DNA of 32,000 nt from Candidatus Saccharimonadota bacterium. Lineage in GTDB: Bacteria > Pseudomonadota > Gammaproteobacteria > Enterobacterales > Enterobacteriaceae. Under the pieces are notes generated by a model. The model was not told the DNA's origin. It ran no database searches and was given only the letters and a program-made list of their open reading frames with translations. Below are positions 18,761 to 19,463 of this stretch, piece after piece. The DNA lies in assembly GCA_036689235.1 (NCBI GenBank), contig CP144769.1:118481-150480 (forward strand), given 5' to 3'. The number at the start of each line of letters is the position of its first letter. Positions within the stretch are counted from its first letter, which is position 1. Both the position numbers and the translations under genes were made by a program.

Positions 18761-19463
18761 TTATTTTTTTTTATTAATTAAAAATAAAGATTTTAATAAA
18801 TATGGTTTTAACAATAATGTTTTAATAAACGACATTTTAAATCTTCATAAAAATATTTCTTTATGATTTCCAGACAATAAAATTTTTGGAACATTTAAAT
18901 TATTAAAAACTCTAGGTCTAGTATAATTAAGGAAATCCTAATAATTTATTTAAATAATTAAAAGAATCAAATTTATATGACTTTATATTATTAATAACAC
19001 CAGGTATTTTTCTTATTAAAATATCAATTACTACTAAACTAGAAATTTCTCCACAACTAATTATATAATCTCCTATAGATAATTCCATATCAATATAATT
19101 ATCAATAATACGTTGATCTATACCATTATATCTACCACAAATAAAAATTAATGAATTATAATTTAATAATTTTTTTATTATATAATCATTAATTATTTTA
19201 CCTTGTGGAGATAAATAAATTACTAAAGAATTAAAATTTTCTTTTTTAATACTATTTATAGATAAATATAAAGATTCTGGTTTAAATAATAAACCAGCTC
19301 CTCCACCATAAACCCTATCTTCATAATTATTTTTATAAATAAATTTTTTTAGATCTATTAAATTTATACTAATTATTTTTTTTTTTATAGCTTTATATAT
19401 TAAACCATTTTTAAAAGGAGAATTAAAAAAATCAGGATTTATAGTTATAATATTAAAATTCAT
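18761..19463 (-). CDS. trmD: tRNA (guanine37-N1)-methyltransferase TrmD; needs a +1 frameshift at 18929/18930
   Basis: The N-terminal 178 codons (YGGGAGLLF, YLSPQG, CGRYNGIDQR, SIGDYIISCGE) end ...LLGFP-TAA at 18927-18929. The conserved C-terminal part [28 protein letters not shown]... continues in the +1 frame to TAA at 18761-18763. Span is 703 nt (3n+1). Confidence 0.88.
18926..18939 (-). promoter_or_regulatory. candidate +1 recoding site in trmD: AGGA-UUU-CCU-UAA-U
   Basis: On the mRNA strand: AGGA (18939-18936), UUU, CCU (18932-18930), UAA (18929-18927). The +1 frame carries TAG at 18940-18938, so the shift must occur within GAUUUCCUU. The architecture matches prfB (SD-like element, 3-nt spacer, shift codon, stop). 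Confidence 0.4.

Follow-up and report, generated by a model that had tools for sequence, protein, structure and literature searches.

How can full-length TrmD, the enzyme that methylates G37 of transfer RNAs (tRNAs), be made from a gene whose reading frame is interrupted by a stop codon? This question is raised by a stretch of 32,000 nucleotides (nt; hereafter the window) from Candidatus Stammera capleta, in which trmD is divided between two reading frames at a proline codon followed by TAA. The window has a G+C content of 13.3%, and intact genes are obtained from it only if TGA is translated as Trp. In tortoise leaf beetles, Stammera serves as an extracellular digestive symbiont, for which the reading of UGA as Trp has already been documented (PMC8629427; preprint 10.1101/2023.12.12.571295). 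In the present study, we propose, with a probability of roughly two in three, that full-length TrmD in this Stammera lineage would be produced through an obligatory +1 ribosomal frameshift by peptidyl-tRNA-Pro stalled at the UAA codon. In addition, the trmD messenger RNA (mRNA) might act as a sensor of tRNA-Pro methylation, in which an unmethylated G37 would lead to the +1 slip at CC[U/C]-UAA and only then to active TrmD, a tentative idea to which we give somewhat less than even odds.

The break, its conservation, the selection acting on the +1 frame and the proline tRNA were all directly observed. On the minus strand, the zero frame of trmD ends in LLGFP and a TAA codon, leaving an open reading frame (ORF) of 178 amino acids, and the rest of TrmD carries on without a gap in the +1 frame as far as its own stop codon; the positions (Table 1) are those given in an earlier note on this DNA, which was written from the sequence without database searches. 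Immediately ahead of the proline codon lie GGA (18938-18936) and TTT (18935-18933), and the local reading is AAA TTA TTA GGA TTT CCT TAA T. The +1 frame is open from 18937, next to the TAG codon that the note had read correctly in this frame, and the TrmD-homologous segment starts at 18928. Upon comparison with the Pfam TrmD family (PF01746), the N-terminal part scored 98.9 bits over profile positions 3-150 and the C-terminal part 29.2 bits over positions 154-191, and the joined protein gave one continuous match of 141.1 bits over positions 3-191 of 195 (cut-off 27.3). The joined protein was also aligned with the structure 7myq (E = 2e-48, residues 3-231) with no gap at LLGFP/NYTRP, consistent with the gap-free junction proposed in the note, which matches solved TrmD structures (LLGFPNYTRP against LLDCPQYTKP). 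The conserved TrmD motifs, i.e. the GGG loop, DSF, NYTRP and SGNH, are all present in the joined protein, and the exact 178-amino-acid protein (P0002) is found in three assemblies.

Species-representative genomes were scanned with a TrmD alignment, and the closest were 28 Stammera genomes. The same +1 break, at the same codon, was observed in seven of these 28 species-level genomes (the window and six others), and the uninterrupted reading CCT AAT (or TCT AAT) was observed in 20. Five of the shifted genomes carry CCT-TAA (the window, L002, L009, L011 and L018; GG[A/T] TTT CCT T/AAT) and two carry CCC-TAA (L020 and L022; GGT TAT CCC T/AAT), the element common to all seven being CC[U/C]-UAA. Proline occupies the shift position in 25 of the 28 orthologues, and in at least two further assemblies, detected through protein clusters, the TrmD call is cut short at this very position. 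The earlier note had suggested that relatives be compared for conservation of both CCT-TAA and the AGGA upstream. The stop-adjacent proline codon was indeed kept, as CCY-TAA, in the six other genomes (four CCT, two CCC), but AGGA is not fixed: AGGA is present in the window, L002 and L011 and AGGU in the four others (L009, L018, L020 and L022), in each case 3 nt ahead of the proline codon, which is the spacing of prfB, the gene for release factor 2 (RF2).

The neighbour-joining tree of four proteins (RpsP, RplS, TruA and Eno) placed all shifted genomes in one region, with the unshifted L003 branching outside, the pair L020 and L022 joining next, and the unshifted L001 as sister to the group of the window, L018, L009, L011 and L002. 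The bootstrap support was 100% for the whole group, 98% for L001 with the CCT-T group and 55% for the node joining both shifted groups, and given this last value the tree accommodates one origin as well as two. A single gain, followed by a third-base change in the proline codon and a precise loss in L001, fits this topology, as do two gains at that codon. Few proline codons in these genomes are CCC (6 of 188 in the sample of the L020 genome and 3 of 189 in the window, CCU being the commonest), and CCC-T therefore has the look of CCT with an inserted C; CCT-T could derive from a T insertion of its own or, in keeping with the mutational bias towards AT, from a subsequent C-to-T change. The host of L018 is Terpsis quadrimaculata (exact match). 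The other hosts are probably Stolas for the window, Chelymorpha for L002, L009 and L011 and Acromis sparsa for L001, all of tribe Mesomphaliini, and Cistudinella and Polychalma, of other tribes, for L020 and L022. The hosts of the shifted genomes include three genera of one beetle tribe, and the break has therefore outlasted the divergence of host genera and probably that of host tribes. A second, different +1 break in trmD was observed in L049 (CP062308.1, 4440-4490), where ATA CCC A/GGA GTA (I P / G V L) is interrupted right after a proline codon and CCC-A would re-pair as CCA. This break is unverified and was not used as evidence, since it occurs in one NCBI assembly and the 97%-identical CP144808.1 (L090) is in frame with ATA CCA GGA; it may be an independent case of the same phenomenon if it is real, and would otherwise be an error. 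The CCC-T and CCT-T variants, the nested unshifted genome and the unverified CCC-A of CP062308.1 suggest that the trmD break may be of multiple origin at proline codons.

In each of the seven shifted genomes, the C-terminal part is open for 53-55 codons and its end coincides with that of the gene in the closest unshifted relatives, and the probability of 55 open codons arising by chance in this base composition is approximately 0.007 for each. Among the shifted genomes, the pairwise ratio of nonsynonymous to synonymous substitutions (dN/dS) was 0.07-0.37 for the C-terminal part and 0.19-0.51 for the N-terminal part, the former being equal to or below the latter. When the same C-terminal DNA was read in the three frames, the median ratio of nonsynonymous to synonymous differences (pN/pS) was 0.29 with 0 stops in the +1 frame, 0.83 with 2-4 stops in the frame one base further, and 2.41 with 7-10 stops in the original frame. 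The codon immediately following the junction already belongs to the conserved stretch (NYT[RK]PR[IV]FNNL). Thus, the downstream codons show purifying selection and a coding signature only in the +1 frame.

The tRNA that would read the shift codon was sought in a complete relative, the 297-kb unshifted chromosome CP144833.1, which contains 30 tRNA genes with a single tRNA-Pro of anticodon UGG. This chromosome (L081-L086) was deposited as 'plasmid pStChz2' and is hence unannotated in the plasmid database PLSDB. The shifted genomes were searched for tRNA-Pro in part only, the corresponding region being retrieved via Rho orthologues from the genome of the window (L087) and from the CCC-TAA genome CP043987.1 (L088). 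The tRNA-Pro gene adjoins tRNA-His, and the stem-loop ACUGG-UUUGGGA-CUAGU is identical in the unshifted genome, the genome of the window and the CCC-TAA genome. The anticodon loop UUUGGGA has the normal 7 nt and contains G36 and G37, the signature of TrmD substrates, and tRNA-Pro(UGG) is therefore a TrmD substrate. Previous reports have shown that CC[C/U]-[C/U] is particularly slippery, that the UGG isoacceptor is highly prone to shift at CC[C/U]-N, and that 1-methylguanosine at position 37 (m1G37) suppresses +1 errors, which increase 8-fold upon its loss (PMC4519876); the shift codon CCU-U agrees with these results, as the earlier note had stated. Moreover, m1G37 is more important for the UGG than for the GGG isoacceptor (PMC7577736), and in Salmonella, isolated suppressors of +1 mutations at CCC-UAU, CCC-AAG and CCC-CAA before a stop were found to include trmD mutants (PMC3617221). 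A shift-prone tRNA, the motif CC[U/C]-U and a stop codon leaving the A site vacant come together at the Stammera site. Of the 202 ORFs of CP144833.1 that are 200 codons or longer, none has CCY before its natural stop, whereas approximately 3 would be expected, a difference that is suggestive and too weak to use.

Several other explanations for these results were weighed. Single-base indels are frequent assembly errors, and the break at a run of 18 A in gyrB of the same window does vary between assemblies, so CCTAAT might be the true sequence at trmD. However, the 770 nt around the site show 0 mismatches in GCA_015142155.1 and in the Logan assemblies of SRR23946950 and SRR10017625 (three assemblies derived from two sequencing (SRA) runs), six other species genomes, which come from two studies, share the extra base, and the break lies outside any homopolymer, the longest run at the site being 3 nt. 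The earlier note had already argued weakly against an assembly indel, and upon this evidence we consider the chance of an error virtually nil and have dropped it. A decaying pseudogene, or a gene of which only the 178-amino-acid fragment is used and the downstream part is untranslated, might be suggested by the 3-4 pseudogenes that Pseudofinder counts in the symbionts of Stolas, Chelymorpha and Terpsis (Table S2 of the Stammera genome paper), since trmD would be flagged in this way. Both are very improbable given that the downstream codons are open in all seven genomes with a coding signature only in the +1 frame, and that the N-terminal part is also constrained. Furthermore, in TrmD-tRNA structures the C-terminal domain is required to bind tRNA, which argues against the use of the fragment alone. 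A split enzyme, in which the C-terminal domain is translated on its own, either through reinitiation beyond the UAA or from an internal start, and joins the N-terminal fragment, would be consistent with the position of the break in the linker between the TrmD domains, where a split could be tolerated; nevertheless, the stretch of the +1 frame from the TAG to NYTRP contains no ATG, GTG or TTG, the closest AUU is out of frame, an ATG first appears 33 codons in and is not conserved (L020 NKS, L022 EKS), and no promoter-like or Shine-Dalgarno (SD) signal is enriched. No conserved restart codon for a separate C-terminal product was found, and together with conservation from the first post-junction codon this makes the split a long shot.

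The frame might instead be mended in the RNA, by transcriptional slippage or by editing that removes one base. Endosymbionts rescue frameshifts through polymerase slippage at long poly(A), according to a 2016 recoding review (PMC5009743), and gyrB in the window has such a run of 18 A. The trmD site, in contrast, is TTTCCTTAA or TATCCCTAA, in which the longest run is 3 nt, known slippage needs a run of approximately 9 or more A or T, and the two sequence variants have only CCN-TAA in common; repair in the RNA is thus very unlikely, and homopolymer slippage at trmD was rejected. Suppressor tRNA-Pro species with an enlarged anticodon loop, of the sufA6/sufB2 type, read CCC-U in the +1 frame (PMC7577736), and one of them could read CCUU or CCCU as a quadruplet. 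The 7-nt loop, the same stem-loop in shifted and unshifted genomes and the single tRNA-Pro among the 30 tRNAs of the complete relative make a quadruplet-reading suppressor extremely improbable, no enlarged loop having been found in the parts of the shifted genomes that were searched. The remaining alternative is also ribosomal: in the clade of the window, tRNA-Phe might slip from UUU to UUC one codon earlier while CCU waits, yielding LLGFLNYTRP. The re-pairing on UUU-C would be perfect and lies inside the allowed interval, and TTT is present in all five CCT-TAA genomes, whereas TAT is found in the CCC-TAA genomes and the nearest unshifted relatives. Nevertheless, this slip cannot operate in L020 and L022 (UAU-C), all seven genomes share CCN-UAA, proline is the residue found here in nearly all orthologues, and no pause is expected at CCU, the commonest proline codon; we regard it as unlikely. 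Regarding other signals, the downstream 80 nt showed no RNA structure in the nine genomes tested (-5 to -10.5 kcal/mol, z from -1.2 to +0.6 against shuffles), and no internal promoter, terminator or Rfam element was found near the trmD site. Because neither homopolymer, restart codon, RNA structure, Rfam element nor promoter-like signal was observed, a ribosomal +1 shift within GGA-UUU-CCU remains, and because the UAU of L020 and L022 is unable to re-pair in the +1 frame, a shift at the upstream codon is ruled out in these genomes and the proline codon is indicated.

Herein, we infer from these sequences a ribosomal mechanism, the codon at which it shifts and a feedback, and propose the following course of events. 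The ribosome would decode CCU (CCC in two relatives) with the sole proline tRNA, tRNA-Pro(UGG), and the UAA in the zero frame would leave the A site waiting. Peptidyl-tRNA-Pro might then re-pair one base forward, from CCU-U to CUU or from CCC-U to CCU, and AAU would be read next, restoring LLGFP-NYTRP, the ancestral sequence; in all seven genomes, a shift at the proline codon would reproduce the ancestral peptide LLG[FY]P-NYT. Ribosomes that terminate instead would release the 178-amino-acid product without the C-terminal domain. Since TrmD methylates G37 and m1G37 suppresses the slip, the output of full-length TrmD would be inversely coupled to TrmD activity: under-methylated tRNA-Pro would be expected to increase the yield and methylated tRNA-Pro to decrease it, i.e. 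a built-in negative feedback. A one-base insertion after a proline codon of trmD would also be partly self-suppressing, because the loss of TrmD raises the very error that repairs trmD, and drift in a bottlenecked symbiont could have fixed such an insertion. The arrangement might now be selected as a regulator or simply be tolerated. In Escherichia coli, the output of TrmD is far below that of the ribosomal proteins encoded in its operon, and a low-efficiency shift could keep TrmD low in Stammera, where trmD starts 3 nt after rpsP.

The likeness to prfB proposed in the earlier note was found only in part. The proline codon, the UAA and the 3-nt spacing are present as described, but the SD-like element has no specific support: the AGG belongs to conserved Leu-Gly codons (TTA-GGN), is also present in unshifted orthologues and matches over only 4 nt. 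The SD-like element may have made the site permissive, an idea without independent support in the present data. The 3' end of 16S rRNA, GGATCACCTCCTTA (anti-SD), is intact in a Stammera relative. In the window, an SD-like motif was observed upstream of only approximately 3 of 27 genes (rplS, eno and prfA), and initiation in this genome seems to be largely SD-independent. Regarding termination, RF2 homologues were returned only from Stammera genomes of at least 291 kb. The RF2 gene of CP144833.1 (L083, 150895-151971) is apparently intact between pth and lysS, with SPF and GGQ motifs, and carries two in-frame TGA codons at conserved Trp positions beside the UGA-to-Trp code. In the window, pth (6716-7291) is directly followed by lysS (7321-8706), with prfB absent at that spot, and the UAA is therefore probably read by release factor 1 (RF1) alone. 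The shifted clade falls within the small-genome lineages from which no RF2 homologue came back, and other small Stammera genomes without a returned RF2 are unshifted. Reading of UAA by RF1 alone may lengthen the pause, which is context for the proposed shift and not proof of it.

Several points weigh against an obligatory shift at the proline codon. L001, although nested among shifted genomes, reads uninterrupted; the site can therefore be lost or arose twice, which speaks against a strict need for it, and this unshifted genome, probably from Acromis, indicates that the arrangement is dispensable. Full-length TrmD is itself a prediction from sequence. In E. coli, UAA-U is a strong termination context, and the efficiency of the shift may hence be low. 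The re-pairing of CCU-U to CUU would require a G-U pair at the middle position, and in the clade of the window a shift of tRNA-Phe on UUU-C (product GFLNYT) would be equally possible from the sequence. The SD-like AGG is ancestral coding sequence in a genome where SD use is rare. Finally, elongation factor P (EF-P) was not found in the partial sequence of the shifted genomes, which proves nothing, and EF-P and the modification of U34 are both caveats.

Table 1. Positions in the window of the divided trmD gene, the proposed shift site and the adjoining genes
Feature	Position	Strand	Remarks
trmD, 0-frame part	18927..19463	-	178 codons and TAA; N-terminal SPOUT domain and linker with DSF motif; ends NKLLGFP
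trmD, +1-frame part	18761..18928	-	55 codons (18928-18764) and TAA (18763-18761); C-terminal domain; one TGA codon for Trp
Putative shift cassette AGGA-UUU-CCU-UAA-U	18926..18939	-	P-site CCU 18932-18930; stop UAA 18929-18927; first +1 codon AAU 18928-18926
TAG in the +1 frame	18938..18940	-	5' limit for the change of frame, which must fall in GGA, UUU or CCU
rpsP (S16)	19467..19706	-	directly upstream of trmD, 3-nt gap; operon context
rplS (L19)	18409..18741	-	downstream of trmD; SD-like AGGA precedes the start

The genes around trmD follow one another on the minus strand as gyrB, tRNA-Ser, rpsP, trmD, rplS, truA and eno, without rimM. The E. coli operon is rpsP-rimM-trmD-rplS, and with the start of trmD so close to the rpsP stop, the Stammera operon is reduced to rpsP-trmD-rplS. 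Contrary to the remark of the earlier note on in-frame A tracts (A13-A15), not every long A tract in the window keeps the frame: the minus-strand gene gyrB is divided at the A18 run 21734-21751 (frame -2 to -3). This gyrB segment has 184 nt in the window and 183 nt, in frame and with interrupted A runs, in L002, L009 and L011, and for the same strain two assemblies disagree (an 806-amino-acid call in GCA_015142155.1 against a 563-amino-acid call in Logan SRR23946950); the break reflects either an error in homopolymer length or a classic site of transcriptional slippage at poly(A). Similarly, the intergenic run between gyrB and rpsP has 21 or 22 A, a one-base difference between two assemblies of the same strain (L091, approximately 1021-1041; L092, approximately 1020-1041), and homopolymer lengths in these assemblies are therefore unreliable. 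Approximately 250 kb of Stammera sequence flanking trmD contained no frame breaks outside trmD, and the only other break in the window is that of gyrB. In two Stammera genomes that read TGA as Trp, the only tRNA-Trp found has the anticodon CCA, not UCA (L086, 32311-32385; L088, 3382-3456), and the reading of UGA by this tRNA would require a C-A mismatch or a modified C34.

The literature on Stammera, trmD, frameshifting and autoregulation that was searched contained no description of this site, in agreement with the earlier note, which knew of none. The word frameshift is absent from the Stammera genome paper (preprint 10.1101/2023.12.12.571295), and neither trmD nor m1G37 is mentioned in the available part of the 2016 recoding review (PMC5009743). 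If the proposed shift and its coupling to methylation are true, TrmD would be the first tRNA-modification enzyme to owe both its synthesis and the tuning of that synthesis to the decoding error that it prevents. It would also be a natural counterpart to decades of genetics and kinetics on m1G37 and tRNA-Pro slippage, and would suggest that in the smallest genomes a gene might survive a frameshift since its own loss of function suppresses the mutation. For annotation, trmD is here truncated or probably scored as a pseudogene, though the evidence from sequence favours a functional gene. Chelymorpha alternans and its Stammera constitute a laboratory model with transcriptome data, and E. coli strains in which TrmD can be depleted are available.

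The closest known system is the prfB site of RF2 (CUU-UGA-C), in which a shift-prone P-site codon is likewise followed by a zero-frame stop, SD-like G-rich bases lie 3 nt upstream, the full-length product arises only after the +1 shift, and the product acts on the deciding step, so that autoregulation is possible. In contrast with prfB, trmD would use tRNA-Pro(UGG) instead of a Leu tRNA and UAA instead of UGA, the proposed sensor is the modification of the P-site tRNA rather than competition for the A-site stop, and the SD-like element is 4 nt long, variable (AGGA/AGGU) and ancestral coding sequence. Moreover, the prfB site is widespread across bacteria (PMC12421855), whereas the trmD site is confined to one clade of one symbiont. 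In the tail shaft gene of the Listeria phages PSA, A118 and A500, a productive +1 shift also occurs at a proline codon before a stop (CCC_UGA) without a homopolymer (PMC5009743); there, a longer second product is made beside a normal one, whereas the unshifted trmD product would be a truncated enzyme, and the trmD product modifies the very tRNA that shifts. In the Salmonella trmD suppressors of the Bjork laboratory, tRNA-Pro without m1G37 slips +1 in the P site and restores the frame (PMC3617221), but these were engineered his alleles with the suppressor in a separate gene, whereas the Stammera break is natural, lies in trmD itself and has been retained across speciation. A bottlenecked, vertically inherited genome that keeps a compensated indel is likewise seen in the corrective frameshifting of mitochondria and in the poly(A) transcriptional slippage of Buchnera and Blochmannia (PMC5009743); the gyrB A18 run fits the poly(A) class, whereas the trmD site has no homopolymer and the compensating error would be one that TrmD normally prevents. 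In antizyme (UCC-UGA-U), a +1 shift at a stop codon is also the sensor in a negative feedback (PMC5009743), but that system is eukaryotic, uses RNA and nascent-peptide stimulators and senses small molecules, the polyamines. The trmD site is thus a possible third natural +1 feedback logic: RF2 senses release factor, antizyme senses polyamines, and trmD would sense the modification state of a tRNA. In other words, stop-codon-assisted +1 frameshifting is known, and the gene and its self-referential sensing logic would be new.

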